A stretch of 64,000 nt of DNA from assembly GCA_965203605.1 (NCBI GenBank), contig OZ241902.1, forward strand, positions 2,345,425 through 2,409,424, read 5' to 3'. The DNA is from Paracoccaceae bacterium (GTDB lineage: Bacteria; Pseudomonadota; Alphaproteobacteria; Rhodobacterales; Rhodobacteraceae). Below the pieces are notes generated by a model that did not search any database, was not told where the DNA came from, and saw nothing but the letters and a program-made list of their open reading frames with translations. Position 1 is the stretch's first letter; every line of letters starts with the position of its first letter. Shown here piece by piece: positions 4,257 to 64,000 of the stretch. The translations under genes were made by a program, and so were the position numbers.

Positions 4257-4424
4257 TTACGGAAATTCGATGGTGTTGCCACTGTCGCCATGGGATGCTT
4301 TCCACCGCGTGCGCGCCTCCAATGGCGTTTGCGCCAACTCGAATTCCGGTGCCAGACGATCGTAGCCTTCCCTATGGTCACCGTCCAAACTCCACCAGTC
4401 GTGTAGTTCGTCCAGCGTGCTCAT
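4257..4424 (-). CDS. Small ORF (55 aa) with a near-perfect Shine-Dalgarno.
   Basis: GGAGGtactggaATG at 4438-4422 gives MSTLDELHDWWSLDGDHREGYDRLAPEFELAQTPLEARTRWKASHGDSGNTIEFP. The ATGA overlaps the stop of a short upstream frame. No homology recognised. Confidence 0.3.
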   Translation of the reverse strand: MSTLDELHDWWSLDGDHREGYDRLAPEFELAQTPLEARTRWKASHGDSGNTIEFP

Positions 4425-4937
4425 TCCAGTACCTCCCCTGCGCCACGGAGCGCCACATCGACCTCCCTGCGCCGCGTGCGCCCCGCTTTCTTCATGATGT
4501 CCGTACCACCACCGATCTGCCCGCCGCAACAGCATGGAGCGCACGCGATGCCCTCCCGCCCGTTCCGCCGGATTTCGCACCAGGTGCCAGTCAGGTGCCT
4601 GGTATGCGGCGCACCCACTCGCTCAAGCCCGCCCGTGGAAATCAGCTGACCTATTCTCTATAATCTCGTCCTCATATCGGCGGGCAGCGCGTCTCGCTCC
4701 CGGTTTAGAGCTTCATCCAGAGTTCTGCTCTGCCGTATGACAGAAGAGTATGGCATTCGTGCTTGACGTTGGAGCCCAACTTTCACCCGGAGGTGCAAAG
4801 ACGGCCGTTTCGCAGCGAGGGTACCAGCGAAGTGGAGAAAATGGCCCGAAGGCGGATTCTCAACTTCCGGGCACCACACCGCCAAAATGCCGGGATGGAC
4901 GCGCCGGACTTCAATGTCAACGTCGCCGAAACATCCT

Positions 4938-36602: not shown

Positions 36603-36676
36603 GGTGAGTTGGCGGAGAGGCTACGCAGCGGACTGCAAATCCGTGTACACCGGTTCGAATCCGGTACTCACCTCCA
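36603..36676 (+). tRNA. tRNA-Cys (GCA).
   Basis: 74 nt. Acceptor stem GGTGAGT/ACTCACC, anticodon loop CTGCAAA, T-arm GGTTCGAATCC, 3' CCA encoded. It aligns position-by-position with E. coli tRNA-Cys. Confidence 0.9.
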
Positions 36677-45504: not shown

Positions 45505-45524
45505 CTCTCTTGAGTAAAACATCC

Positions 45525-46916
45525 CTAACCCACTGATTCCAGGGTATTTCCGGATTCCGGGCTTTCGGGGATCCTGACGAGCTGGTAGCCGAGCTGTCTG
45601 GCCCGTCGGCCGAGGTTCGTGACGGTTCGGTTGACGCGGCGGCGCTCGTAGGCATCCATCCCGCGCTCCACGTATTCCTCCCCGTTCGTGACGAGTGTGT
45701 ACACGAGGCAGGCAAGTTCGCGGGCGGTCGCGGTGACCGCCACCGGCGCGTCCTTCCGGGCGAGGCGGGCGCGGTGCCGGGCGCCGATGAACGTCTGGCT
45801 CCTGCGGGCGGACATGGCGGCCATGCGCAGGGCCTGCGCGACCCTGTTGACGACCTTGGGCGGGCGCCCCGGCAGGGACTTTCCGCCGCTGATCCGGGTT
45901 CCCGGCGCCAGCCCCAGCCAGGAGCTGAAGTGCTGCGCCGAGGGGAAGGCCGACATGTCCGGGCCGACCTCCGCCGCGATGGTGAGGGCCGTGCCCACCC
46001 CGATGGTGGGGATGGCGGTGAGGTCGACGCCCATCATCCCGCGCAGCGCCTGCGCCATCGCCCTGTCCCCCGCTTTCCGTCCGCCAGCGGCGCCCCGACG
46101 GGCCTTCGGTGCGGCGCGAACGGGGTCCGGGGCGTCCCCGGCCGCATCCGCCGGACCGCCATCCGACCCTCCGTCACCCCCCTGCGGCGTCAGGCCGTCG
46201 ATCGCCTCCGCGATCCGCGCCCCGCAGGTCCCGATCTGCTGCGTGAGGAAATCGAAGCGCTCCAGCGCCTGCTCCAGCGCGAACAGGTGCTCGTCGCGCC
46301 AGGTGCCCTGAAGCGCGTCGGCGATCCTCTCCCCGCCCGCCCTTATCCGCCGGTTGCGGAGCGCCGCCAGCCGCGCCGGGCTGCGCTCGCCGTCGACGAT
46401 CGCCCGCAGGATCCTCAGGCCGGTGGCGCCGGTGATGTCGCTGATCACCGAGTCGAGGCGCACGTTCATCTCCGTCAGCGCCTTCTGCATGTGCAGGACA
46501 CAGCGCGAGCGGTCCTCGGTCAGCCGCTTCGCCTGACGCACGTACGAACGCAGCGGGCAGACGTCATCGCCGGGACGGAAGGCCCCCCGCAGGAGCCCGT
46601 ACGACAGGAGCTGCCGGATCCACTGGCAGTCCAGGACGTCGCTCTTGCGCCCCGAGATCTGCTTCGTCATCCGTGGCGGCACCAGCATCACCTCGAAGCC
46701 GGCCCGGTCCAGGACCTCGAAGACCGGGATCCAGTACACCGAGGTCGACTCCATCGCCACCTTCCCGACCCCGCAGGACGACAGCCAATCCGCCATCTCC
46801 TCAAGGTCCGGCGTGAAGGCCCCGAACGACCGCACCGGCTCCGCGAACCGGTCCGCATCGACCGCGACATAGTGTGTGTCCTTGCCGATATCGATCCCGG
46901 CGCAGTCCCGGGTCAC
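45525..46916 (-). CDS. IS110-family (DEDD) transposase/recombinase, element A copy 1.
   Basis: ...TRDCAGIDIGKDTHYVAVD...ESTSVYW... RuvC-like DEDD domain plus a C-terminal Transposase_20-type domain. Probable GTG start at 46916. The track's TTG 46973 start lies inside element B's left end. Confidence 0.85.
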   Translation of the reverse strand: MTRDCAGIDIGKDTHYVAVDADRFAEPVRSFGAFTPDLEEMADWLSSCGVGKVAMESTSVYWIPVFEVLDRAGFEVMLVPPRMTKQISGRKSDVLDCQWIRQLLSYGLLRGAFRPGDDVCPLRSYVRQAKRLTEDRSRCVLHMQKALTEMNVRLDSVISDITGATGLRILRAIVDGERSPARLAALRNRRIRAGGERIADALQGTWRDEHLFALEQALERFDFLTQQIGTCGARIAEAIDGLTPQGGDGGSDGGPADAAGDAPDPVRAAPKARRGAAGGRKAGDRAMAQALRGMMGVDLTAIPTIGVGTALTIAAEVGPDMSAFPSAQHFSSWLGLAPGTRISGGKSLPGRPPKVVNRVAQALRMAAMSARRSQTFIGARHRARLARKDAPVAVTATARELACLVYTLVTNGEEYVERGMDAYERRRVNRTVTNLGRRARQLGYQLVRIPESPESGNTLESVG

Positions 46917-47049
46917 GATCTCCAGATGCCATGAGACACGCCGCCGTTTGCCTTCGCGGGTGATTCGGTGCAAGGGAATGACGATGTTTCAACATGTTGT
47001 GGCGGGGGGCCATTTGACGGCAACCCCCGCCCTGTGAAAGGAGAATGAA

Positions 47050-48417
47050 ATGACTGATTCGAAAACCCCCTTCGAGGGCGACGTTACCACGGTCTACGCG
47101 GCGTTGGAAGTGAGCGGCACCAGCTGGATACTGGCGGTGGGCGATCCGTCCGACACGTCGAAAGCCGGCGTGCACAGACTGGCGCCGCATGACGTTGACG
47201 GCCTGCTGGGCAGGCTCGGGCGGGCGCGGGAGCGCGCTGTCGGGGCCGCCGGCGATGTCCGGGTGAAGCTGGTGTACGAGGCTGGCTACGAGGGCTTCTG
47301 GCTGGCCCGCCGGCTGGAGGGGGAGGACCCCGGGGTTGTGGTCTGCGACCCCGCGAGCCTGGAGGTGGTGCGCAGGAAGAAAAAGGTGAAGACGGACCGG
47401 ATCGACGCCCGCCGGATGGTCCGGGCGCTCAGGGCGTGGGACGGCGGCGACCGGGACGCGATGTCGCGGGTGCGGGTCCCGACGGTCGCGGAGGAGGACA
47501 GGAAGCGGCTTCTGCGCCGGCGGGAGCGTCTGGTGCAGGAGCGCCGCCGGCTCGCGAACGCGGTGGGTGGGCTTCTGAGGCTGCACGGCATATGCGGTGC
47601 GCGTCCGGAGAGGCCGGGGTTCCGGGAGCGGCTCGTCGGGATGGAGACCGGCTACGGGACGCCGCTGCCGCCGGAGCTGCTCGCGGAGATTGGGGGCATG
47701 CTGGATCGGCTGGAGCTGGTGGCCGCGGAGCTGAAGGTGGTCGAGGCGAGGAAGGCGGAGATTCTGGAGGCGTCGGGCCGGGCCCTCGACAGCCTTCACG
47801 CGGATGCCGACCGGCCTCCCGCCGCCCCGGCTCCCCGGAAGGAGGCGCCCGATCCGGAAAGAGCCGCCCGGAAGGAGGGGTCGCGCGGAGCGGATCCGGC
47901 CGGTGCGCCCGCTGGCAGGCCGCGGGCGGCCCCGGCGAACACCCACCACGCGGCGGCGCTGGTCCGGCTTCGCGGGATCGGCCCGAACGACGCGCTGATG
48001 CTGGGCGGCGAGCTCTTCTACCGGGAGTTCCGCAACCGCCGGCAGCTGGCCAGCCTCGCGGGGCTGGCGCCGGTGCCCTTCGCGAGCGGGGGCGTCGACC
48101 ACGACCAGGGGATCAGCAAGTCCGGCAGCGCCATGCTGCGCAGGCACCTCGTGCAGATGGCCTGGCGCTGGCTGCAACACCAGCCGGAGAGTGCGCTGTC
48201 CGCGTGGTTCCGGAGCTACGTGAGCGCCCGCGACGGGCGGTCGCGCAGGCGGGGGATCGTGGCGCTGGCGCGTAAGCTGCTGGTCGCGCTGTGGCGGTTC
48301 GCCACCACCGGGCTGGTGCCGGAGGGCGCCGTCCTGTCCGGGGCACGGGGGTGGGAGGGCAACGGAACACCCGGGCGGCCCGACGGGGCCTCCGGGGAAC
48401 CCGGGCAGGGCGTGTGA
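47050..48417 (+). CDS. IS110-family (IS1111-group-like) transposase/recombinase, element B copy 1 (stop-loss variant, 455 aa).
   Basis: MTDSKTPFEGDVTTVYAALEVSGTSWILAVGD...VKLVYEAGYEGFW... The copy-1 tail reads GARGWEGNGTPG... because the TAG seen in copies 2 and 3 is TGG here. Confidence 0.85.
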   Translation: MTDSKTPFEGDVTTVYAALEVSGTSWILAVGDPSDTSKAGVHRLAPHDVDGLLGRLGRARERAVGAAGDVRVKLVYEAGYEGFWLARRLEGEDPGVVVCDPASLEVVRRKKKVKTDRIDARRMVRALRAWDGGDRDAMSRVRVPTVAEEDRKRLLRRRERLVQERRRLANAVGGLLRLHGICGARPERPGFRERLVGMETGYGTPLPPELLAEIGGMLDRLELVAAELKVVEARKAEILEASGRALDSLHADADRPPAAPAPRKEAPDPERAARKEGSRGADPAGAPAGRPRAAPANTHHAAALVRLRGIGPNDALMLGGELFYREFRNRRQLASLAGLAPVPFASGGVDHDQGISKSGSAMLRRHLVQMAWRWLQHQPESALSAWFRSYVSARDGRSRRRGIVALARKLLVALWRFATTGLVPEGAVLSGARGWEGNGTPGRPDGASGEPGQGV

Positions 48418-48552
48418 CCGCAGGAGGGCCTGGTTCGCCGCAGGACGCGGCACCGTCCATTCCAGATGGGTCCCGCCCCCCGGAACGTCGCACCGGCCCG
48501 AATCGGGCATGATGGTCACGGGGCCGGCACCGGCCAACCGAACCGGATAAGA

Positions 48553-49180
48553 GGCTGGACGCGTCGTTGAGCGCGTCATGGAACAGCGACGTTCTGTCTG
48601 GACTTCCCCGTTGGCGCGGAAGCCGCCCCCAGACGGAGGAACCGACGATGTGAGGCCATGAAAGGGATTCATGAAAAAGGGCTTGACCTGGCGGGTCTCA
48701 TAAGAGCCCTCCGGCCCTGCCTCTTCCCTTTCCCTTCCGCTTGCGTGGCATGTCATTCCCTCCTCCGGCCATCTCGCTCCATCAGGTTCGGGGAGGAACC
48801 ACGGCGCATTCCCAATCTCTTGAACGAGGTCACGGGGAGACCCCCGCACCATCAGTGACAGACGCCGGTCACGGTTCGGGCCAGGCTCTTATACGGGTGA
48901 CGTGCACGCCAAAGTACTACGGGCCTCGACTGCCCCGACCACCACCGAGTTGACACCAGCGGCGGCGGAGGGGCAACCCTCCCGTTTTACTTTCGCGACA
49001 GCGCCGCCGCCCCGCGACGGTTTGGGCTCTTATGAGACCCGCCAGGTCAAGCCCTTTTTCATGAATCCCTTTCATGGCCTCACATCGTCGGTTCCTCCGT
49101 CTGGGGGCGGCTTCCGCGCCAACGGGGAAGTCCAGACAGAACGTCGCTGTTCCATGACGCGCTCAACGACGCGTCCAGCC
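48553..49180. repeat. 154-bp perfect inverted repeat (48553-48706 / 49027-49180) flanking a 320-bp non-coding core (48707-49026).
   Basis: gctggacgcgtcgttgagcgcg...gggtctcataagag on the left is the exact reverse complement of ctcttatgagaccc...cgcgctcaacgacgcgtccagc on the right. No credible ORF lies in the core. Confidence 0.9.
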
Positions 49181-49201
49181 TCTCTCTTGAGTAAAACATC
49201 C

Positions 49202-50593
49202 CTAACCCACTGATTCCAGGGTATTTCCGGATTCCGGGCTTTCGGGGATCCTGACGAGCTGGTAGCCGAGCTGTCTGGCCCGTCGGCCGAGGTTCGTGAC
49301 GGTTCGGTTGACGCGGCGGCGCTCGTAGGCATCCATCCCGCGCTCCACGTATTCCTCCCCGTTCGTGACGAGTGTGTACACGAGGCAGGCAAGTTCGCGG
49401 GCGGTCGCGGTGACCGCCACCGGCGCGTCCTTCCGGGCGAGGCGGGCGCGGTGCCGGGCGCCGATGAACGTCTGGCTCCTGCGGGCGGACATGGCGGCCA
49501 TGCGCAGGGCCTGCGCGACCCTGTTGACGACCTTGGGCGGGCGCCCCGGCAGGGACTTTCCGCCGCTGATCCGGGTTCCCGGCGCCAGCCCCAGCCAGGA
49601 GCTGAAGTGCTGCGCCGAGGGGAAGGCCGACATGTCCGGGCCGACCTCCGCCGCGATGGTGAGGGCCGTGCCCACCCCGATGGTGGGGATGGCGGTGAGG
49701 TCGACGCCCATCATCCCGCGCAGCGCCTGCGCCATCGCCCTGTCCCCCGCTTTCCGTCCGCCAGCGGCGCCCCGACGGGCCTTCGGTGCGGCGCGAACGG
49801 GGTCCGGGGCGTCCCCGGCCGCATCCGCCGGACCGCCATCCGACCCTCCGTCACCCCCCTGCGGCGTCAGGCCGTCGATCGCCTCCGCGATCCGCGCCCC
49901 GCAGGTCCCGATCTGCTGCGTGAGGAAATCGAAGCGCTCCAGCGCCTGCTCCAGCGCGAACAGGTGCTCGTCGCGCCAGGTGCCCTGAAGCGCGTCGGCG
50001 ATCCTCTCCCCGCCCGCCCTTATCCGCCGGTTGCGGAGCGCCGCCAGCCGCGCCGGGCTGCGCTCGCCGTCGACGATCGCCCGCAGGATCCTCAGGCCGG
50101 TGGCGCCGGTGATGTCGCTGATCACCGAGTCGAGGCGCACGTTCATCTCCGTCAGCGCCTTCTGCATGTGCAGGACACAGCGCGAGCGGTCCTCGGTCAG
50201 CCGCTTCGCCTGACGCACGTACGAACGCAGCGGGCAGACGTCATCGCCGGGACGGAAGGCCCCCCGCAGGAGCCCGTACGACAGGAGCTGCCGGATCCAC
50301 TGGCAGTCCAGGACGTCGCTCTTGCGCCCCGAGATCTGCTTCGTCATCCGTGGCGGCACCAGCATCACCTCGAAGCCGGCCCGGTCCAGGACCTCGAAGA
50401 CCGGGATCCAGTACACCGAGGTCGACTCCATCGCCACCTTCCCGACCCCGCAGGACGACAGCCAATCCGCCATCTCCTCAAGGTCCGGCGTGAAGGCCCC
50501 GAACGACCGCACCGGCTCCGCGAACCGGTCCGCATCGACCGCGACATAGTGTGTGTCCTTGCCGATATCGATCCCGGCGCAGTCCCGGGTCAC
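49202..50593 (-). CDS. IS110-family transposase, element A copy 2 (identical to copy 1).
   Basis: Identical 482-aa track translation to 45525..46973. Confidence 0.85.
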   Translation of the reverse strand: MTRDCAGIDIGKDTHYVAVDADRFAEPVRSFGAFTPDLEEMADWLSSCGVGKVAMESTSVYWIPVFEVLDRAGFEVMLVPPRMTKQISGRKSDVLDCQWIRQLLSYGLLRGAFRPGDDVCPLRSYVRQAKRLTEDRSRCVLHMQKALTEMNVRLDSVISDITGATGLRILRAIVDGERSPARLAALRNRRIRAGGERIADALQGTWRDEHLFALEQALERFDFLTQQIGTCGARIAEAIDGLTPQGGDGGSDGGPADAAGDAPDPVRAAPKARRGAAGGRKAGDRAMAQALRGMMGVDLTAIPTIGVGTALTIAAEVGPDMSAFPSAQHFSSWLGLAPGTRISGGKSLPGRPPKVVNRVAQALRMAAMSARRSQTFIGARHRARLARKDAPVAVTATARELACLVYTLVTNGEEYVERGMDAYERRRVNRTVTNLGRRARQLGYQLVRIPESPESGNTLESVG

Positions 50594-50726
50594 GATCTCC
50601 AGATGCCATGAGACACGCCGCCGTTTGCCTTCGCGGGTGATTCGGTGCAAGGGAATGACGATGTTTCAACATGTTGTGGCGGGGGGCCATTTGACGGCAA
50701 CCCCCGCCCTGTGAAAGGAGAATGAA

Positions 50727-52031
50727 ATGACTGATTCGAAAACCCCCTTCGAGGGCGACGTTACCACGGTCCAGTCGGCGTTGGAAGTGAGCGGCACCAG
50801 CTGGATACTGGCGGTGGGCGATCCGTCCGACACGTCGAAAGCCGGCGTGCACAGACTGGCGCCGCATGACGTTGACGGCCTGCTGGGCAGGCTCGGGCGG
50901 GCGCGGGAGCGCGCTGTCGGGGCCGCCGGCGATGTCCGGGTGAAGCTGGTGTACGAGGCTGGCTACGAGGGCTTCTGGCTGGCCCGCCGGCTGGAGGGGG
51001 AGGACCTCGAGGTTGTGGTCTGCGACCCCGCGAGCCTGGAGGTGGTGCGCAGGAAGAAAAAGGTGAAGACGGACCGGATCGACGCCCGCCGGATGGTCCG
51101 GGCGCTCAGGGCGTGGGACGGCGGCGACCGGGACGCGATGTCGCGGGTGCGGGTCCCGACGGTCGCGGAGGAGGACAGGAAGCGGCTTCTGCGCCGGCGG
51201 GAGCGTCTGGTGCAGGAGCGCCGCCGGCTCGCGAACGCGGTGGGTGGGCTTCTGAGGCTGCACGGCATATGCGGTGCGCGTCCGGAGAGGCCGGGGTTCC
51301 GGGAGCGGCTCGTCGGGATGGAGACCGGCTACGGGACGCCGCTGCCGCCGGAGCTGCTCGCGGAGATTGGGGGCATGCTGGATCGGCTGGAGCTGGTGGC
51401 CGCGGAGCTGAAGGTGGTCGAGGCGAGGAAGGCGGAGATTCTGGAGGCGTCGGGCCGGGCCCTCGACAGCCTTCACGCGGATGCCGACCGGCCTCCCGCC
51501 GCCCCGGCTCCCCGGAAGGAGGCGCCCGATCCGGAAAGAGCCGCCCGGAAGGAGGGGTCGCGCGGAGCGGATCCGGCCGGTGCGCCCGCTGGCAGGCCGC
51601 GGGCGGCCCCGGCGAACACCCACCACGCGGCGGCGCTGGTCCGGCTTCGCGGGATCGGCCCGAACGACGCGCTGATGCTGGGCGGCGAGCTCTTCTACCG
51701 GGAGTTCCGCAACCGCCGGCAGCTGGCCAGCCTCGCGGGGCTGGCGCCGGTGCCCTTCGCGAGCGGGGGCGTCGACCACGACCAGGGGATCAGCAAGTCC
51801 GGCAGCGCCATGCTGCGCAGGCACCTCGTGCAGATGGCCTGGCGCTGGCTGCAACACCAGCCGGAGAGTGCGCTGTCCGCGTGGTTCCGGAGCTACGTGA
51901 GCGCCCGCGACGGGCGGTCGCGCAGGCGGGGGATCGTGGCGCTGGCGCGTAAGCTGCTGGTCGCGCTGTGGCGGTTCGCCACCACCGGGCTGGTGCCGGA
52001 GGGCGCCGTCCTGTCCGGGGCACGGGCGTAG
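50727..52031 (+). CDS. IS110-family transposase, element B copy 2 (434 aa).
   Basis: Same protein as copy 1 except TTVQSA vs TTVYAA, EDLEVV vs EDPGVV, and a TAG stop after ...SGARA. Confidence 0.85.
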   Translation: MTDSKTPFEGDVTTVQSALEVSGTSWILAVGDPSDTSKAGVHRLAPHDVDGLLGRLGRARERAVGAAGDVRVKLVYEAGYEGFWLARRLEGEDLEVVVCDPASLEVVRRKKKVKTDRIDARRMVRALRAWDGGDRDAMSRVRVPTVAEEDRKRLLRRRERLVQERRRLANAVGGLLRLHGICGARPERPGFRERLVGMETGYGTPLPPELLAEIGGMLDRLELVAAELKVVEARKAEILEASGRALDSLHADADRPPAAPAPRKEAPDPERAARKEGSRGADPAGAPAGRPRAAPANTHHAAALVRLRGIGPNDALMLGGELFYREFRNRRQLASLAGLAPVPFASGGVDHDQGISKSGSAMLRRHLVQMAWRWLQHQPESALSAWFRSYVSARDGRSRRRGIVALARKLLVALWRFATTGLVPEGAVLSGARA

Positions 52032-52230
52032 GAGGGCAACGGAACACCCGGGCGGCCCGACGGGGCCTCCGGGGAACCCGGGCAGGGCGTGTGACCGCAG
52101 GAGGGCCTGGTTCGCCGCAGGACGCGGCACCGTCCATTCCAGATGGGTCCCGCCCCCCGGAACGTCGCACCGGCCCGAATCGGGCATGATGGTCACGGGG
52201 CCGGCACCGGCCAACCGAACCGGATAAGAG

Positions 52231-52703
52231 GCTGGACGCGTCGTTGAGCGCGTCATGGAACAGCGACGTTCTGTCTGGACTTCCCCGTTGGCGCGGAAGC
52301 CGCCCCCAGACGGAGGAACCGACGATGTGAGGCCATGAAAGGGATTCATGAAAAAGGGCTTGACCTGGCGGGTCTCATAAGAGCCCTCCGGCCCTGCCTC
52401 TTCCCTTTCCCTTCCGCTTGCGTGGCATGTCATTCCCTCCTCCGGCCATCTCGCTCCATCAGGTTCGGGGAGGAACCACGGCGCATTCCCAATCTCTTGA
52501 ACGAGGTCACGGGGAGACCCCCGCACCATCAGTGACAGACGCCGGTCACGGTTCGGGCCAGGCTCTTATACGGGTGACGTGCACGCCAAAGTACTACGGG
52601 CCTCGACTGCCCCGACCACCACCGAGTTGACACCAGCGGCGGCGGAGGGGCAACCCTCCCGTTTTACTTTCGCGACAGCGCCGCCGCCCCGCGACGGTTT
52701 GGG
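52231..52703. repeat. Second copy of the left palindrome arm plus the 320-bp core. The right arm is replaced by inverted element B3.
   Basis: Sequence identical to 48554..49026. The next bases (ctcttatccggttcgg...) are the reverse complement of the B right end. Confidence 0.85.
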
Positions 52704-52902
52704 CTCTTATCCGGTTCGGTTGGCCGGTGCCGGCCCCGTGACCATCATGCCCGATTCGGGCCGGTGCGACGTTCCGGGGGGCGGGACCCATCTGGAATGG
52801 ACGGTGCCGCGTCCTGCGGCGAACCAGGCCCTCCTGCGGTCACACGCCCTGCCCGGGTTCCCCGGAGGCCCCGTCGGGCCGCCCGGGTGTTCCGTTGCCC
52901 TC

Positions 52903-54207
52903 CTACGCCCGTGCCCCGGACAGGACGGCGCCCTCCGGCACCAGCCCGGTGGTGGCGAACCGCCACAGCGCGACCAGCAGCTTACGCGCCAGCGCCACGA
53001 TCCCCCGCCTGCGCGACCGCCCGTCGCGGGCGCTCACGTAGCTCCGGAACCACGCGGACAGCGCACTCTCCGGCTGGTGTTGCAGCCAGCGCCAGGCCAT
53101 CTGCACGAGGTGCCTGCGCAGCATGGCGCTGCCGGACTTGCTGATCCCCTGGTCGTGGTCGACGCCCCCGCTCGCGAAGGGCACCGGCGCCAGCCCCGCG
53201 AGGCTGGCCAGCTGCCGGCGGTTGCGGAACTCCCGGTAGAAGAGCTCGCCGCCCAGCATCAGCGCGTCGTTCGGGCCGATCCCGCGAAGCCGGACCAGCG
53301 CCGCCGCGTGGTGGGTGTTCGCCGGGGCCGCCCGCGGCCTGCCAGCGGGCGCACCGGCCGGATCCGCTCCGCGCGACCCCTCCTTCCGGGCGGCTCTTTC
53401 CGGATCGGGCGCCTCCTTCCGGGGAGCCGGGGCGGCGGGAGGCCGGTCGGCATCCGCGTGAAGGCTGTCGAGGGCCCGGCCCGACGCCTCCAGAATCTCC
53501 GCCTTCCTCGCCTCGACCACCTTCAGCTCCGCGGCCACCAGCTCCAGCCGATCCAGCATGCCCCCAATCTCCGCGAGCAGCTCCGGCGGCAGCGGCGTCC
53601 CGTAGCCGGTCTCCATCCCGACGAGCCGCTCCCGGAACCCCGGCCTCTCCGGACGCGCACCGCATATGCCGTGCAGCCTCAGAAGCCCACCCACCGCGTT
53701 CGCGAGCCGGCGGCGCTCCTGCACCAGACGCTCCCGCCGGCGCAGAAGCCGCTTCCTGTCCTCCTCCGCGACCGTCGGGACCCGCACCCGCGACATCGCG
53801 TCCCGGTCGCCGCCGTCCCACGCCCTGAGCGCCCGGACCATCCGGCGGGCGTCGATCCGGTCCGTCTTCACCTTTTTCTTCCTGCGCACCACCTCCAGGC
53901 TCGCGGGGTCGCAGACCACAACCTCGAGGTCCTCCCCCTCCAGCCGGCGGGCCAGCCAGAAGCCCTCGTAGCCAGCCTCGTACACCAGCTTCACCCGGAC
54001 ATCGCCGGCGGCCCCGACAGCGCGCTCCCGCGCCCGCCCGAGCCTGCCCAGCAGGCCGTCAACGTCATGCGGCGCCAGTCTGTGCACGCCGGCTTTCGAC
54101 GTGTCGGACGGATCGCCCACCGCCAGTATCCAGCTGGTGCCGCTCACTTCCAACGCCGCGTAGACCGTGGTAACGTCGCCCTCGAAGGGGGTTTTCGAAT
54201 CAGTCAT
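52903..54207 (-). CDS. IS110-family transposase, element B copy 3 (inverted; 434 aa).
   Basis: Reverse-complement copy of B (element 52704..54336). Its left end, tccagatgcc..., abuts AAA-ATPase gene sequence directly. Confidence 0.85.
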   Translation of the reverse strand: MTDSKTPFEGDVTTVYAALEVSGTSWILAVGDPSDTSKAGVHRLAPHDVDGLLGRLGRARERAVGAAGDVRVKLVYEAGYEGFWLARRLEGEDLEVVVCDPASLEVVRRKKKVKTDRIDARRMVRALRAWDGGDRDAMSRVRVPTVAEEDRKRLLRRRERLVQERRRLANAVGGLLRLHGICGARPERPGFRERLVGMETGYGTPLPPELLAEIGGMLDRLELVAAELKVVEARKAEILEASGRALDSLHADADRPPAAPAPRKEAPDPERAARKEGSRGADPAGAPAGRPRAAPANTHHAAALVRLRGIGPNDALMLGGELFYREFRNRRQLASLAGLAPVPFASGGVDHDQGISKSGSAMLRRHLVQMAWRWLQHQPESALSAWFRSYVSARDGRSRRRGIVALARKLLVALWRFATTGLVPEGAVLSGARA

Positions 54208-54336
54208 TTCATTCTCCTTTCACAGGGCGGGGGTTGCCGTCAAATGGCCCCCCGCCACAACATGTTGAAACATCGTCATTCCCTTGCACCGAATCACCCG
54301 CGAAGGCAAACGGCGGCGTGTCTCATGGCATCTGGA

Positions 54337-55211
54337 CCGGGTGTTCGCGCCGGAACTCGACGGGCTGGACCGGGACAGGATCCGCACCTGAGTACGACGG
54401 CTACCGCTGGCGCGGCGGGGAGCGGGTCTACAATCCCCACGACGTGCTGCTGCTGCTGCGCAACCGCGAGTTCCGTCCGTACTGGTTCGAGACCGGGTCG
54501 CCGGACTTCCTGTTCCGCATGCTGGCGGAGCGGTCGGTGAGCCCGATGGAGCTGGAGGGGCGGCTGGCGGACATGGCCCTGGTCTCGAAGTTCGATGTGG
54601 GCGACATCGGCATCGAGGCGCTGCTCTTCCAGACCGGCTACCTCACCATCGCAGGCGAGGAGAGGCAGGGCCACAGGACCCTCTACCGTCTGGACTATCC
54701 CAACCTCGAGGTCCGGCTCAGCCTGAACGACGGGCTGCTGGCCTGGCTGGGCAAGAAGGGCGCCGAGCCCCTGGAGCGCGGCCGGGAGCTCTGTGCGCTG
54801 CTGGAGGCGCACGACTTCGCGGGTTTCCGCGCGACGCTGCGGGCCTGGCTGTCGGGGATCCCCTACCAGTGGCACGCGAAGGGCGACCTCGCGCGGTACG
54901 AGGCGTGGTACGCGAGCCTCCTGTACATGTGCCTGCGCGCGGTGGGCGCGGACCTGGCGGTGGAGGAGGCCTCCTCGCGCGGCCGTGCGGACATGGTGCT
55001 GCGTCTCGGCGGGCAGGTCTTCGTGATCGAGTTCAGGATGGCCGAGAACGAGGATGGCGGCGAGGCCGCGCTCGAGGCGGCGATGGCGCAGATGCGCGGG
55101 CGGGGCTATGCGGAGAGGCACCGCGTGGCCGACTCACCGGTCCACCTGATCGCGGTGGCCTGCGGGCGCGAGGTGCGCAACCTCCTCGACATCCGCGCCG
55201 AGCCCGCATGA
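54337..55211 (+). pseudogene. C-terminal fragment of the PF09820/PDDEXK_9 AAA-ATPase-like gene. It carries an internal +1 frameshift.
   Basis: ...YRWRGGERVYNPHDVLLLLRNREFRPYWFETGSPDFLF... continues the family. The upstream frame reads VFAPELDGLDRDRIRT then TGA (54389-54391). A single inserted A (cacctgAgtacgac) explains the frame change. Confidence 0.7.
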
Positions 55212-58975: not shown

Positions 58976-59106
58976 ATTCAGGGTTACGGCGAAAACCCCT
59001 GTCACGAAACCAGTTGACAACGTCAGCTGTCGAGACCAATAGCGCAGCGGAAACCATACCCGCAACCGGGCGTTCCGTGGGCGCCAGACCGACGAGGAGA
59101 GCCAGC

Positions 59107-61065
59107 ATGGCCCAGATTTCCCTTATCTTCCCCGATGACAGTATCCGCAGTTACGAATCGGGTATCACCCCAATGGAGGTGGCGGCCTCGATCGCACCTT
59201 CCCTTGCCAGAAAGGCCATTTCCGCGAGTCTCGACAACCTACATTTCGACCTGCAATGGCCCATCGAACGGGACGGTCGGATATCGATCCACACTTTGGG
59301 AGATGACACCCAGGCACTGGAGCTGATCCGCCACGACTGCGCACATATCATGGCGCGTGCGGTGCAGGAGATCTGGCCGGATGCGAAGGTCACGATCGGG
59401 CCCGTAATCGAAAATGGTTGGTACTACGATTTTGACAGGAACGAGCCGTTCACCCCAGACGATCTCGGCGTTATCGAAAGCAGAATGAAGGAAATCATCA
59501 ATCGCCGCGATCCAATTACGACGGAGGTATGGGAGCGCGTGCGGGCAGCCAAGCACTATGCCGCAAATCATGAACCGTACAAGGTCGAGCTGCTGGAGGC
59601 GATTCCGGAAGGAGAGCCTATCCGCATGTATTGGCACGGTCACTGGCAGGATCTCTGTCGCGGGCCCCATTTGCAGCACACCGGTCAGGTGCCTGCCGAC
59701 GCCTTCAAGCTGACCAGTGTCGCCGGGGCATATTGGCGTGGCGACAGTTCGCGCCCCATGCTGCAACGCATTTACGGAGTCGCTTTCAGGAACCGAGGGG
59801 ATCTCAGGGCTCACCTGCTGATGCTGGAGGAAGCGGCGAAGCGTGACCATCGCAGGATCGGTCGCGAGATGGACCTCTTTCACATGCAGGAGGAAGCTCC
59901 CGGACAGGTGTTCTGGCATCCAAACGGTTGGAAGATATTCACGACCCTTCAGGACTACATGCGCCGCAAGCAGACTCAGGGCGGCTATCTTGAGGTCAAC
60001 ACGCCTCAGGTGGTCGATCGCAAGCTCTGGGAGGAATCCGGACATTGGGAAAAATTCCAGGAGCACATGTTCATCGTTGAGGTCGACGAGGAACATGCCC
60101 GAGAAAAGGCAATCAGCGCACTCAAGCCAATGAACTGTCCCTGCCATGTTCAGATATACAACCAGGGCCTCAAATCCTATCGGGATCTCCCTTTGCGCAT
60201 GGCAGAGTTCGGTTCCTGCAACCGTTACGAACCCTCTGGTGCGCTTCATGGAATGATGCGGGTTCGCGGATTCACCCAGGATGACGCCCATATTTTCTGT
60301 ACCGAGGACCAGATCGAGAGCGAAACCTCGACCTACATCGATTGGCTGACGGAAGTGTACACCGAACTCGGCTTCCCTCGGTTCCAGGTGAAGTTCTCTG
60401 ACCGACCTGAAGTCAGGGCGGGCGCTGACGAAGTTTGGGACCGTGCGGAACGGGCCCTGCTTGAAGCCACCCGCAAAGCAGGTCTCGAACCCGAACTCAA
60501 TCCGGGTGAGGGCGCATTCTACGGCCCCAAACTCGAGTTCGTCCTTACGGACGCCATCGGCCGGGACTGGCAATGCGGAACGCATCAGGTGGATTTCGTG
60601 CTGCCCGAACGGCTCGGAGCCTCCTATATCGGCCCGGACGGTGACCGACATCGACCCGTCATGCTGCATCGAGCCTGTCTGGGCTCATTCGAACGCTTCA
60701 TCGGTATCCTGATCGAAAGCCATGCCGGCAGACTACCCTTTTGGCTCGCTCCCCGTCAGGTCGTTGTCGCCTCAATCGTCTCGGATGCCGACGACTATGT
60801 TCGCGAGGTGGCCACCACTCTGAGAGCCCGGGGGCTCAGGGCTGAACCGGACGTGAGAAACGAGAAAATAGGTTACAAGGTCCGCGAGCATTCACTCGCG
60901 AAGGTTCCCGTGATTCTGGCTTGCGGAATGAAGGAAACCGCCGATGGGACGGTCTCGGTGCGACGACTTGGAGAGAAACGGACGCAGGTCATGGCGCTCG
61001 GTGAAATTGCGGACGCGCTCAGTTCCGAATCGATTCCACCAGATTTACGGGTGGGTCCAGGGTGA
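59107..61065 (+). CDS. thrS: Threonine--tRNA ligase.
   Basis: 652 aa from [11 protein letters not shown], with TGS, editing, class-II core and anticodon-binding domains. The ATG is at 59107; the track starts 31 codons upstream. Confidence 0.95.
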
Positions 61066-61503
61066 CCATGCCATAGGCCGAGATGGCACCGACTGCGCCT
61101 GGCGGATGAGGCTGAGGGAGTGGCGACAATGGAATTCCGTCGCAATCCGGGACGGTGATGGCCCTGGACCCGGCATATCTCTCAATTCCCGGCGCGACCC
61201 GGTAGCTGAGGCGGTTCCGCACTTTGGCGGGGTCGGGGTCTGCAGCCTGCCGTGGTGCGTTTCCACCGACATTGATTGGGGCTCATGGCAGATCACGAAG
61301 TCACGCTGACGAATTCCGTGCCAGGTGCACGGTCAAAAGGGCTTGCGAATCCCTTCCTCCAACTCACGGCGGAACCGCCGGCAGCCAGTCCAATCACAAA
61401 ATTCGCACGCACCTGTTATTGGATGATGGCGCTGCGCGGGCTATAGGTGATTCGTCGTCGCAGGATGCGATGAATCGGATCAGCTACTCACAGGAGAATC
61501 CCA

Positions 61504-61806
61504 ATGTCGACCACAGTAAAGACACTCGCCGTCGCCAGCGCCGTTGCCGCTGCCATTGCAGGCCAAGCCACCGTCGCGGCCGCCCAGACCAAGGACAAGT
61601 GCTACGGAGTTTCCCTCGCGGGCAAGAACGACTGCGCCGCTGGCCCAGGCACGACCTGCGCCGGGACGTCGACCGTCGACTATCAGGGCAACGCCTGGAC
61701 TTTGGTCGACGCTGGCACCTGCATGGAAATCGAACTGCCTGCGATGGCGGACGGCACGCCCCGCCAGGGATCGCTGGAAGCGCTGGACCGCGACCTCCCG
61801 TCCTGA
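61504..61806 (+). CDS. bufA: DUF2282-family secreted Cys-containing peptide precursor (bufferin-type RiPP precursor).
   Basis: AGGAGA RBS. Sec signal [28 protein letters not shown], then [44 protein letters not shown] with 4 Cys in the DUF2282 pattern. Confidence 0.8.
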
Positions 61807-61924
61807 TTTCCGCGTGGCCTCCGGTGTTCGCATGCCGGAGGCCACCGTTCGCGATTGCGGTCGAAAGAACCGGGACATCGCCTTATCCAGAGGTCTGGAT
61901 GCGCCAGAACAAAGGGCGTCAGGA

Positions 61925-62785
61925 ATGCTTGACCAGGTTTCGAGTCGCTTTGGCTGCCTGCCCAACGCTCCAGGTGTCGGCTATAAGCCTCAGCACTTTC
62001 AGGATGTCCTGAACAATCCCGGCCCGGTTCTATGGTTGGAAATCCATGCCGAGAACTACATGGGCGACGGCGGCCGACCATTGGCGCAGCTGAGGGAACT
62101 GGCGGAACGCTTTCCGATCTCTATCCATGGTGTGGGCCTGTCAATCGGAGGCGAGGCGCCTCTTGATGCCGAGCATCTTGCAAGAATGCGGCATTTGGTT
62201 GAATGGCTGAAACCGGCGAGTTTCTCGGAACATCTTGCGTGGTCAACGCATGACACCCATTTCCTGAACGATCTCCTTCCCCTGCCCTACAATTCCAGGA
62301 CCCTTGCACGGGTATGCGAGCACATAGATGAAGTGCAGAGCGCAACCGGACGAAGGATGCTGCTCGAGAACCCGTCAACCTATCTTGCGTTCTCGGAAAC
62401 GACGCTGACGGAAATTGAGTTCCTGACCGAAATCACCCGCCGAACGGGATGTGGGTTGCTGCTCGATGTCAATAACGTCTTCGTGAGTGCAACCAACCAG
62501 CAGACGGACGCAAACAGCTACATCGACAGTTTCCCCCTTCATCTTGTCGGTGAGATCCATCTGGGTGGCCACGATGTGGACTCCGACGAAACCGGTGCTC
62601 CACTGTTGATAGACGATCACGGCCGTGAGGTGATCGATCCCGTCTGGACGCTGTATGAGCGGACGATCATGCGCGGTGGACAGAAACCAACACTGATTGA
62701 ATGGGACAACAATGTTCCGGATTGGGCAGAACTCGCTTCGGAGGCCCAACGGGCTGCGACGGTTCTTGAAGCCGCTCCCGCATGA
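61925..62785 (+). CDS. bufB: DUF692 / MNIO (multinuclear non-heme iron oxidative) RiPP-modifying enzyme.
   Basis: 286 aa from MLDQVSSRFGCLPNAPGVGYKPQHF...; TIM-barrel xylose-isomerase-like UPF0276 family. It lies directly downstream of the DUF2282 gene. Confidence 0.85.
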   Translation: MLDQVSSRFGCLPNAPGVGYKPQHFQDVLNNPGPVLWLEIHAENYMGDGGRPLAQLRELAERFPISIHGVGLSIGGEAPLDAEHLARMRHLVEWLKPASFSEHLAWSTHDTHFLNDLLPLPYNSRTLARVCEHIDEVQSATGRRMLLENPSTYLAFSETTLTEIEFLTEITRRTGCGLLLDVNNVFVSATNQQTDANSYIDSFPLHLVGEIHLGGHDVDSDETGAPLLIDDHGREVIDPVWTLYERTIMRGGQKPTLIEWDNNVPDWAELASEAQRAATVLEAAPA

Positions 62786-63534
62786 TGGCTGGGCAGACGG
62801 AATTCGTTGATGCGCTTCTGAACCCCACGCTTTCGGTCCCAGCTGGATTGACCAATCCAGGCGGCGGCGGGGCGATCAAGCGGTTTGACGTCTACCGCAA
62901 CAATGTCGTGGTCAGTCTGACGGCGGCACTCGAAGTCGCGTTTCCAGTAGTCCGCAAACTGGTTGGGGAGTCCAGCTTCATGGAGATCTCCAGAACTTAC
63001 GTGCGGAAGTACCCGCCTGATTCCCCGCTTCTGATGCTCTACGGAATGCAAATGCCTGAATTCCTTGCGGAGTTCGAGCCTGCCCGACAGATCGGCTACC
63101 TTCCCGATACCGCGCGATTGGAACTGGCGCTTCGAGAATCCTATCACGCCGCTGATTCGGTGCCGTTGGCGCCAACCGAGCTGCAGATCCCCACAGATCG
63201 TCTGATGGCATCGGTCGTGAGGCTTGCACCATCGGTTCGGTTGGTGCGGTCCGTCTGGCCGATCCACGGCATTTGGCGCTTCAACATGGAACATGGGGCG
63301 CCGAAACCACCGGTCCGCGGCGAGAACGTACTGGTAACCCGCCCGGAATTCGATCCGCAGCTATCGACTTTGGCATCGGGTGGCGGTACGTTTGTGGCGG
63401 CTCTGTTGATGGGCGCGAACTTCGGCACGGCACTGAATGCCGCGATGGACAAAGTGCCGGAGTTTGATCTGTCCAGCACACTTGGCACACTTCTTCGAGG
63501 CGGTGCGCTAACAGGGCTTGACGAGGATGGCTAG
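62782..63534 (+). CDS. bufC: DUF2063-family partner protein of MNIO enzymes.
   Basis: The RFDVYRNN hallmark near the N-terminus. The start overlaps the DUF692 stop (ATGA). Confidence 0.8.
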   Translation: MMAGQTEFVDALLNPTLSVPAGLTNPGGGGAIKRFDVYRNNVVVSLTAALEVAFPVVRKLVGESSFMEISRTYVRKYPPDSPLLMLYGMQMPEFLAEFEPARQIGYLPDTARLELALRESYHAADSVPLAPTELQIPTDRLMASVVRLAPSVRLVRSVWPIHGIWRFNMEHGAPKPPVRGENVLVTRPEFDPQLSTLASGGGTFVAALLMGANFGTALNAAMDKVPEFDLSSTLGTLLRGGALTGLDEDG

Positions 63535-64000
63535 ATGAACGGATTAGTTTCCCCTTACGCCGCTGCTCTTGCCTGGACAGACAGGTTTGCCAGGTTCCTG
63601 CTGCCCACATTGGCGCGATTTATCTTCGCGGCGGTTCTGCTGGTCTACTACTGGAATTCCGGCCTTACCAAGCTTGGTGACGGCATCAAGGGTCTGTTGA
63701 GCCCCACCTTCAACGCGTTCGCGCAGATATTTCCGAAAGGCGCCGCAGCCGTCGGCTATGACATCACCCAAGCGACATCGTTCCAGAAGTTTGTCACGCT
63801 GGCTGGAACATGGGCTGAGTTCGTGCTTCCTGCGCTCATTGTCGCCGGGTTGCTCACCCGGCTGGCAGCGTTTGGAATGATTGGCTTTGTTGTCGTTCAG
63901 AGCCTCACTGATATCTGGGGACACGATGCCGACGCCGGGACGGTCGGATCATGGTTTGACATAAGTTCAGGTGCGCCAATCCTTGATCAACGCGCTTTCT
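63535..64000 (+). CDS. DoxX-family membrane protein (partial; continues past the window end).
   Basis: The ATG at 63535 overlaps the preceding TAG. The hydrophobic product is MNGLVSPYAAALAWTDRFARFLLPTLARFIFAAVLLVYYWNSGLTKLGDG... Confidence 0.7.
   Translation, partial: MNGLVSPYAAALAWTDRFARFLLPTLARFIFAAVLLVYYWNSGLTKLGDGIKGLLSPTFNAFAQIFPKGAAAVGYDITQATSFQKFVTLAGTWAEFVLPALIVAGLLTRLAAFGMIGFVVVQSLTDIWGHDADAGTVGSWFDISSGAPILDQRAF

Follow-up and report, generated by a model that had tools for sequence, protein, structure and literature searches.

A bufABCD operon of the Buf1 bufferin type probably lies beside thrS in a Paracoccaceae bacterium

Do the four genes that close a 64,000-nucleotide (nt) stretch of DNA from a Paracoccaceae bacterium (assembly GCA_965203605.1, contig OZ241902.1, positions 2,345,425 to 2,409,424; this whole stretch is called the window) encode a bufferin, i.e. 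a copper-binding peptide matured by an iron enzyme, and would such a system work here as it does in Caulobacter vibrioides? Positions 61504-64000 of the plus strand hold four co-directional open reading frames (ORFs) in the order bufA-bufB-bufC-bufD, according to the ORF listing and to direct reading. The following features are concerned:

61504-61806, plus strand: bufA, 100-residue precursor of the DUF2282/BufA1 family (bufferin 1-type)
61925-62785, plus strand: bufB, 286-residue multinuclear non-haem iron oxidative (MNIO) enzyme, of the family formerly called DUF692
62782-63534, plus strand: bufC, 250-residue DUF2063 partner of the MNIO enzyme
63535-64000, plus strand: bufD, DoxX-family membrane protein, with the first 155 of its 240 codons inside the window
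61492-61496, plus strand: ribosome-binding site AGGAG, 7 nt 5' of the bufA ATG

An earlier reading of the letters alone (hereafter the sequence-only reading) had already assigned the four genes to these families and positions, and the Pfam profiles PF10048, PF05114, PF09836 and PF07681, which all match, bear it out. It was also right about the strong ribosome-binding site, at the position of which the upstream alignment of relatives has a consensus AAGGGA/AGGAG, and about the overlap between the bufB stop and the bufC start, which share ATGA at 62782-62785. The start of bufD at 63535 abuts the TAG of bufC and, as announced, this last gene runs off the end of the window. With strong hidden Markov model support for each family and the canonical gene order, chance is excluded as a source of the four-gene match at the level of sequence. 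We consider with a probability of about 0.82 that the bufABCD operon seen here is complete and belongs to the Buf1 (DUF2282) type of bufferins, also known as captophorins, with a mechanism like that of Caulobacter. The assignment to the Buf1 type results from the presence of a DUF2282 precursor, a BufB-type MNIO enzyme, a DUF2063 partner and a DoxX protein in the canonical order. All the sequence-level features that define a Buf1-type cluster are present here. The SigF/NrsF module, which many Buf1 clusters have but which is not part of the core, was found neither in the thrS-bufA spacer nor on the contig that extends the window (see below). Gene content, family membership, catalytic residues, conserved cysteines, BufC fold and synteny all rest on data obtained here.

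For comparison, one genome per species was scanned, which gave at least 578 BufB relatives. The best 80 were used; all of them belong to Rhodobacterales (Paracoccaceae/Roseobacteraceae) and are 68-81% identical to BufB, which assigns the window to this order too. The precursor BufA matches PF10048 (DUF2282/BufA1) with 84.1 bits (E 6.6e-24), its residues 30-78 corresponding to positions 1-50 of the 53 positions of the profile, and at least 7999 relatives of this protein were scored. Its four cysteines, Cys33, Cys44, Cys52 and Cys73, lie within the motifs KCYG, NDC, TTC and GTC respectively and are invariant across 78 Rhodobacterales BufA sequences. Their spacing (11/8/21) is identical to that of Cys12, Cys23, Cys31 and Cys52 of Caulobacter BufA1, as derived from the residue numbers printed in PMC11626156. 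The only hydrophobic segment of BufA extends from about residue 4 to residue 27, with a basic residue (Lys6) near the N-terminus, and ends in VAAA before Gln28. An AxA site is found 4-6 residues ahead of the first cysteine (CysI) throughout the relatives. According to sequence rules, residues 1-27 are thus a predicted Sec signal peptide, cleaved after Ala27. These data agree with the signal peptide and the four cysteines that the sequence-only reading had described, and they show both the cleavage site and the cysteine conservation whose absence it had named as refuting.

The predicted core, Gln28-Ser100, has 73 residues, is acidic (isoelectric point 4.2) and carries its cysteines at core positions 6, 17, 25 and 46. 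Its computed monoisotopic mass is 7491.44 Da unmodified versus 7481.36 Da for the predicted mature form. The loss of 4 Da per modified cysteine that had been proposed from the sequence is correct for each cysteine; however, only CysII and CysIII of the four are expected to be modified, with a total of -10 Da once the CysI-CysIV disulfide is counted (PMC11626156). Outside the Pfam domain, the C-terminal tail carries a conserved L-x-R-D-L-P motif. The R-D pair of this motif is invariant in all 78 sequences, which suggests a function for the tail, perhaps in recognition by BufC. In NCBI and UniRef, orthologues that share 80% identity with BufA already bear the label "BufA1 family periplasmic bufferin-type metallophore".

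Some relatives differ in their precursors. Five loci (L005, L018, L031, L050 and L070) encode a longer BufA of 115-123 residues, in which a motif resembling EA(D/Q)G(Y/F)xGLARDLPEG takes the place of the usual tail or lengthens it. In two others, L017 (about 4386-4929; a Tropicimonas-like metagenome-assembled genome) and L035 (about 4383-4929; Aliiruegeria lutimaris), the 250 nt 5' of bufA encode the C-terminal part of a second BufA-like precursor; the precursor genes thus stand in tandem, in agreement with the tandem precursors described in the literature.

The enzyme BufB matches PF05114 (MbnB_TglH_ChrH) with 346.5 bits and the NCBIfam equivalog model NF050167 (MNIO_BufB, "MNIO family bufferin maturase") with 375.9 bits for a cut-off of 310. 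It stays under the cut-offs of the NCBIfam models for HvfB (233 versus 360), ApyH, MbnB (46.8 bits) and ChrH. The nearest solved structure is 3BWW (E 1e-44). In MbnB, iron is bound by His54, His90, Glu133, Asp163, Asn166, His192, Asp208, His210 and Glu239 (PMC9060507). BufB has equivalents of these nine ligands in the same order: H68, H103, E148, D181, N184, H212, D230, H232 and E259. Seven of them come straight from the alignment with 7TCR, and H68 and E259 were placed through alignments with 3BWW, 8HCI and 7DZ9 and through spacing. Absence of the iron-binding residues had been named beforehand as an observation that would refute the bufferin assignment; all nine are present. Moreover, D261, which lies in an E-W-D motif, falls on the Asp of the E-x-D motif in the alignment. 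From this position it may be equated with D249 of FonB, the proposed catalytic base. The nine ligands and D261 are invariant in the 80 Rhodobacterales relatives.

BufC matches PF09836 (DUF2063) with 79.6 bits over residues 5-95, and a sequence search against PDB gave no match even at E 1. Its structure was modelled with AlphaFold2 from 54 aligned sequences, out of 2743 homologues found at E <= 0.001, and the model was compared with PDB using Foldseek. The model (mean predicted local distance difference test score 92.8, predicted template modelling score 0.88) has a helical N-terminal domain and a beta/alpha C-terminal half. The best folds are those of TglI (8HCI_A, E 8.4e-6), which partners the MNIO enzyme TglH, and of the DUF2063 protein NGO1945 from N. 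gonorrhoeae (3DEE, E 1.3e-4). Weak fold matches were found with MbnC and, over about 75 residues, with TbiB1, a protein with a recognition element for peptides that are made by ribosomes and modified after translation (RiPPs). In the model, the C-terminal domain of BufC resembles such a RiPP recognition element. These fold matches agree with the published make-up of BufC, which associates an N-terminal DUF2063 domain with a C-terminal recognition-element-like domain.

The 155 residues of BufD encoded in the window match PF07681 (DoxX) with 31.7 bits for a cut-off of 23.6. The rest of the gene was recovered from L001, a metagenome contig found by exact look-up of BufC, which overlaps the window by its final ~6.9 kb and continues for ~9 kb past its end; over the 6400 bases compared, the two sequences are identical. 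The full bufD (L001 6427-7149) encodes 240 residues. The Pfam labels given to the proteins of L001 in the source collection include "BufA1" and "HvfC_N". In Caulobacter, DoxX is dispensable for modification and for the copper phenotype (PMC11626156). BufD has hydrophobic segments and, at its C-terminus, about 70 additional residues of low complexity, rich in Pro, Ser and Asp; the tblastn matches in most relatives stop before this extension. From these matches, the extension appears to be lineage-specific.

What is known from orthologous systems indicates how the operon may work. In C. vibrioides, the conversion of CysII and CysIII of BufA1 into 5-thiooxazoles, with a loss of 4 Da each, requires BufB1 and BufC1, and these two proteins suffice for it; a disulfide links CysI to CysIV. 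Export depends on the Sec signal peptide, which is cleaved off and is dispensable for the modification. Copper is bound by the bufferin both as Cu(I) and as Cu(II), and under copper stress the bufferin makes for better growth (PMC11626156). The 5-thiooxazole assignment was independently confirmed and extended to all the DUF2063-dependent MNIO enzymes that were tested (PMC13097082). For the locus studied here, we infer chemistry, export route, copper binding and physiological role from the family. BufA would be synthesised as a 100-residue precursor. BufC would hold it through the recognition-element-like domain while BufB, a cytoplasmic iron enzyme, would use O2 to oxidise the central Cys44 and Cys52 to 5-thiooxazoles. 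The modified precursor would then be exported by Sec and cleaved by signal peptidase after Ala27, and a disulfide would form between Cys33 and Cys73 in the periplasm. The folded product of 73 residues would bind Cu(I)/Cu(II) through the sulfurs and nitrogens of the thiooxazoles and would lower free periplasmic copper. DoxX would have an accessory role, and a stem-loop located after bufA (see below) would probably hold the mRNA of the precursor above that of the enzyme. Nothing in the sequence itself was seen to contradict the bufferin assignment.

Is the operon a mobile accessory trait or a stable part of the genome? The gene thrS (59014-61065; domains tRNA-synt_2b, HGTP_anticodon, tRNA_SAD and TGS) lies on the same strand, 438 nt 5' of bufA, i.e. 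directly upstream as the sequence-only reading had stated. According to Pfam, an alpha/beta hydrolase gene on the opposite strand precedes thrS. Searches with tblastn of the proteins of the window against 81 loci gave the following numbers of loci with a match:

BufA: 80 of 81
BufB: 81 of 81
BufC: 79 of 81
DoxX: 73 of 81
ThrS, upstream, same strand: 75 of 81
ArsC-family gene, downstream, opposite strand: 63 of 81
Cold-shock protein gene, downstream: 61 of 81

In 56 loci, thrS directly adjoins bufA with a gap of at most 441 nt. The earlier suggestion that the operon is probably core-genome is hence supported for Rhodobacterales by the synteny of thrS and bufABCD in 75 of the 81 loci. Farther downstream, 3' of the arsC and cold-shock genes and ~3.9 kb past the end of the window (L001:8345-8803), lies a gene encoding a YHS-domain protein, putatively metal-binding, with a twin-arginine-like signal (LTRRTAIG). 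It is shared with L002 only, which places it outside the conserved neighbourhood.

The likely control of the operon is one of the points where the locus departs from Caulobacter. The Caulobacter SigF promoter motif GTAACC-N16-CGAA, taken from PMC3511200 and searched with up to two mismatches, has no match in the thrS-bufA spacer (61066-61503). Over the whole window, it gives 57 scattered matches, versus 56 for the largest shuffle. Sigma-factor or NrsF genes were not found among the called genes of L001, to which this search was limited. In the upstream region, nothing was seen that resembled the consensus sites of CopR, CueR and CsoR, which is a weak negative. A scan of 60900-64000 for promoters and terminators of the E. 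coli type gave no promoter and two weak terminator-like sites on the minus strand, inside genes. Rfam at gathering thresholds found only a tRNA (36603-36673) in the whole window, and a permissive Rfam search of 61000-62000 returned only a snoRNA-like chance match (E 0.86), with no known leader riboswitch or small RNA.

By contrast with the Caulobacter arrangement, the relatives share upstream elements of their own. Across 52 aligned upstream regions, the consensus reads TGTTnCA-N5-TCACG-N5-CGTG-N3-CACG-N5-CGTGAnTGG, then TGAnC and, past a short spacer, GnCTAnnT. Its main part is a palindromic element of ~30 bp, TCACG-N5-CGTG-N3-CACG-N5-CGTGA, found upstream of bufA in Rhodobacterales and often preceded by TGTTTCA (for instance L059:4099-4160 and L045:4489-4550). 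The proximal box of this palindrome lies 84-127 nt 5' of the bufA ATG in 52 of 78 loci. When both strands of ~0.75 Mb of related loci were searched with the strict two-box pattern, 42 of the 43 matches were at this place upstream of bufA. The two-box pattern has no match in the window; only the proximal half is retained there and in L002, the relative closest to it. The elements around bufA in the window are:

61406-61422, plus strand: proximal half of the palindrome, CACGcacctGTTATTGG, with the distal half missing
61423-61447, plus strand: putative housekeeping-type promoter, with a -35-like ATGATGG (61423-61429), a 10-nt spacer and a -10-like GCTATAGG (61440-61447)
61448-61482, plus strand: leader stem-loop with the core ATTCGTCG...CGATGAAT, in the presumed 5' untranslated region after the putative -10
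61815-61844, plus strand: stem-loop 3' of bufA, with a 13-bp GC-rich stem, 9 nt past the bufA stop and lacking a U-tract

The clade-specific palindrome may be the operator of a regulator; it matches no regulator site that we could name. The TGAnC...GCTAnnnT arrangement is reminiscent of TTGACGS-N10-14-GCTANAWC, the alphaproteobacterial/Caulobacter housekeeping consensus, and 61423-61447 is consequently a putative promoter of this alphaproteobacterial housekeeping type.

Three other candidate signals were rejected. TGTAACA, which appeared as a conserved motif, is the context of the thrS stop codon (...CTG TAA) in Ruegeria-like genomes. TGTTTCA-N14-CGT as a promoter for an extracytoplasmic function (ECF) sigma factor has too short a spacing, and the AAC core is absent from most copies. 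A sigma-54 reading of TGGC...TGA fails since TTGC is absent at the proper spacing. Furthermore, the thrS-bufA spacer of the window (438 nt) is the longest among the 56 directly adjacent loci, which typically have 200-250 nt, and its additional ~200 nt contain neither an Rfam match nor a convincing ORF.

One scenario would connect these observations, and we hold it to be possible but doubtful. The bufferin operon of Rhodobacterales would be a vertically inherited core locus fixed 3' of thrS, in which the SigF/NrsF metal-stress switch was exchanged for a housekeeping-type promoter under the control of a palindrome-binding regulator, the lineage of the window having lost the distal half of the operator. 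If true, it would mean that these abundant marine bacteria use the operon to handle periplasmic copper either constitutively or in response to another trigger.

Several points weigh against a bufferin system that works exactly as in Caulobacter. The regulatory setting is unlike that of the Caulobacter model, both upstream of bufA and in the gene content of L001. Because of this context, a copper-stress trigger, and with it the operon being cryptic until copper induces it, as the sequence-only reading proposed, would be an extrapolation here. The strict core-genome conservation beside thrS could indicate housekeeping and not a response to stress. In addition, our literature search found no paper on the operon in Rhodobacterales (Rhodobacter, Paracoccus, roseobacters), an order that goes unnamed in a large survey of MNIO clusters.

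The alternative that survives best takes up these points. With the same chemistry and the same product, the operon would handle metals in the periplasm constitutively or under another kind of regulation, for instance by storing copper or supplying it to cuproenzymes or as a defence against other metals or oxidative stress, and not as a copper-induced emergency buffer. Its fixed place beside thrS, which marks a vertically inherited core locus, the SigF motif missing upstream and the sigF/nrsF genes missing from L001, the housekeeping look of the promoter and the clade-specific palindrome, which suggests a different regulator, all favour this role, and the published literature itself leaves room for other metals and stresses. 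However, every characterised member of the family binds copper and protects against it. Moreover, regulators may be encoded elsewhere than next to the operon, the sigF/nrsF search having covered L001 only, and the promoter is a putative one. We judge this different role unlikely.

A second alternative concerns the chemistry: BufB would install another modification, such as the oxazolone-thioamide of methanobactin, or would target other residues than the Caulobacter enzyme does. MNIO enzymes do catalyse several reactions, and highly similar ones were first assigned oxazolone-thioamide products. Nevertheless, the oxazolin product was revised to 5-thiooxazole, and all the characterised DUF2063-dependent MNIO enzymes install this group (PMC13097082). 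BufB scores far better against the BufB equivalog than against MbnB (375.9 versus 46.8 bits), and the spacing of the cysteines is identical to that of BufA1. This makes another modification very improbable. Finally, that the genes are merely adjacent and form no peptide-modification system, as old database names still carried by close homologues would have it (DUF2282 "integral membrane protein", DUF2063 "DNA-binding domain" protein), has a negligible probability, since the sole hydrophobic segment of BufA is its N-terminal signal peptide, BufC has the fold of MNIO partners and not of transcription factors, the start/stop overlap and the gene order are constant wherever the respective gene is present (73-80 of 81 loci), and the published biochemistry of the orthologous system, in which Caulobacter BufB and BufC jointly modify BufA in vitro, effectively refutes it.

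A bufferin operon of the Buf1 type thus being the preferred reading, how does it compare with the known systems? The closest counterpart is buf1 of C. vibrioides (CCNA_03363-03366, encoding bufferin 1; PMC11626156), which has the same four genes in the order DUF2282-MNIO-DUF2063-DoxX, a Sec signal on the precursor and four cysteines with the same spacing. Unlike it, the locus described here is known from sequence alone and lacks both the adjacent sigF/nrsF genes and the GTAACC-N16-CGAA promoter. Its predicted core has 73 residues instead of 68, with only five residues before CysI, and a longer tail past CysIV that ends in the conserved L-x-R-D-L-P. Its DoxX protein carries the non-conserved extension of ~70 residues, and its position beside thrS is fixed. 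Orthologous four-gene operons of the Buf1 type are also found in Cupriavidus metallidurans, where the operon is called gig (gold-induced genes), and, as homologues of gig, in Legionella and Bordetella. These are metal-induced or virulence-regulated accessory loci, whereas the operon of Rhodobacterales occupies a fixed chromosomal site by thrS order-wide.

More distant are the EGKCG-repeat captophorins (oxazolin, encoded by hvf of H. influenzae, fontiphorin and gonophorin). They also combine an MNIO enzyme with a DUF2063 partner, often a DoxX protein, and a precursor with a signal peptide, and their products bear copper-binding 5-thiooxazoles (PMC13097082). Their precursors are made of unstructured repeats with many modified cysteines, in contrast to the folded DUF2282 domain and the two modified cysteines predicted here. 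Methanobactin synthesis (MbnABC) likewise relies on an MNIO iron enzyme and a partner that turn cysteines of a ribosomal peptide into a copper ligand, with conserved iron ligands. However, the product is an oxazolone-thioamide, the leader is not of the Sec type, the peptide is exported to scavenge copper and the partner MbnC belongs to a different family, in line with the low score of BufB against MbnB. The bulbicupramide cluster of Microbulbifer (PMC12538549), likewise an MNIO-type cluster for a copper-binding peptide, is obligately conserved throughout this marine genus, a parallel to the clade-wide conservation seen in Rhodobacterales. It belongs to Gammaproteobacteria and has another type of precursor, whereas the conservation observed here extends over many genera of Rhodobacterales and includes the synteny with thrS.

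Two RNA structures accompany the precursor gene. In the leader, the hairpin of the window has a minimum free energy of -18.8 kcal/mol (z -2.6). In 36 of 52 loci, a conserved TCG(C) anchors a stem of 5 bp or more, versus a mean of 5.7 and a maximum of 14 loci in 500 shuffles. In these 36 loci, 28 different pairs of arms are found, the sequence varying with the pairing kept. This pattern suggests that the pairing is under selection, and the hairpin could be a stabiliser of the 5' end or a regulatory element. In the bufA-bufB spacer, a stem-loop follows soon after the bufA stop in all 79 loci folded (mean z -3.1; z below -2 in 78%). Its position is universal and its sequences are unrelated, with a run of U after the stem in some relatives only. 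It is likely a partial terminator or an RNA stabiliser that would hold the precursor mRNA above the enzyme mRNA. An excess of precursor mRNA obtained through such a hairpin arrangement is familiar from other operons for peptide natural products.

Conceptually, such a locus brings nothing new: bufferins were described in 2024, with further work up to 2026, thousands are known and the close orthologues are named by public annotation pipelines. The system itself is thus already described, and any novelty would concern its regulation and role in Rhodobacterales. Its value lies in a RiPP operon that behaves like core genes in a marine order of ecological dominance for which copper toxicity matters, in a regulation that must depart from the Caulobacter model and in the clade-universal stem-loop after the precursor gene. 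Moreover, the defined putative operator and the predicted product masses offer handles for a second, marine bufferin model.

Elsewhere in the window, 45505-54540 contain a cluster of insertion sequences of the IS110 family. One unit is directly repeated with a spacing of 3677 bp (45505 and 49182), and a stretch of 1633 bp occurs three times (46921-48553, 50598-52230 and, inverted, 52704-54336), all copies being 100% identical. The ORFs at 45525-46973 (minus strand) and 47050-48417 (plus strand) encode DEDD_Tnp_IS110 and Transposase_20 domains, and an ORF with a PD-(D/E)XK nuclease domain lies at 54234-55211. The perfect identity of the IS110 copies suggests either recent transposition or duplication during assembly.

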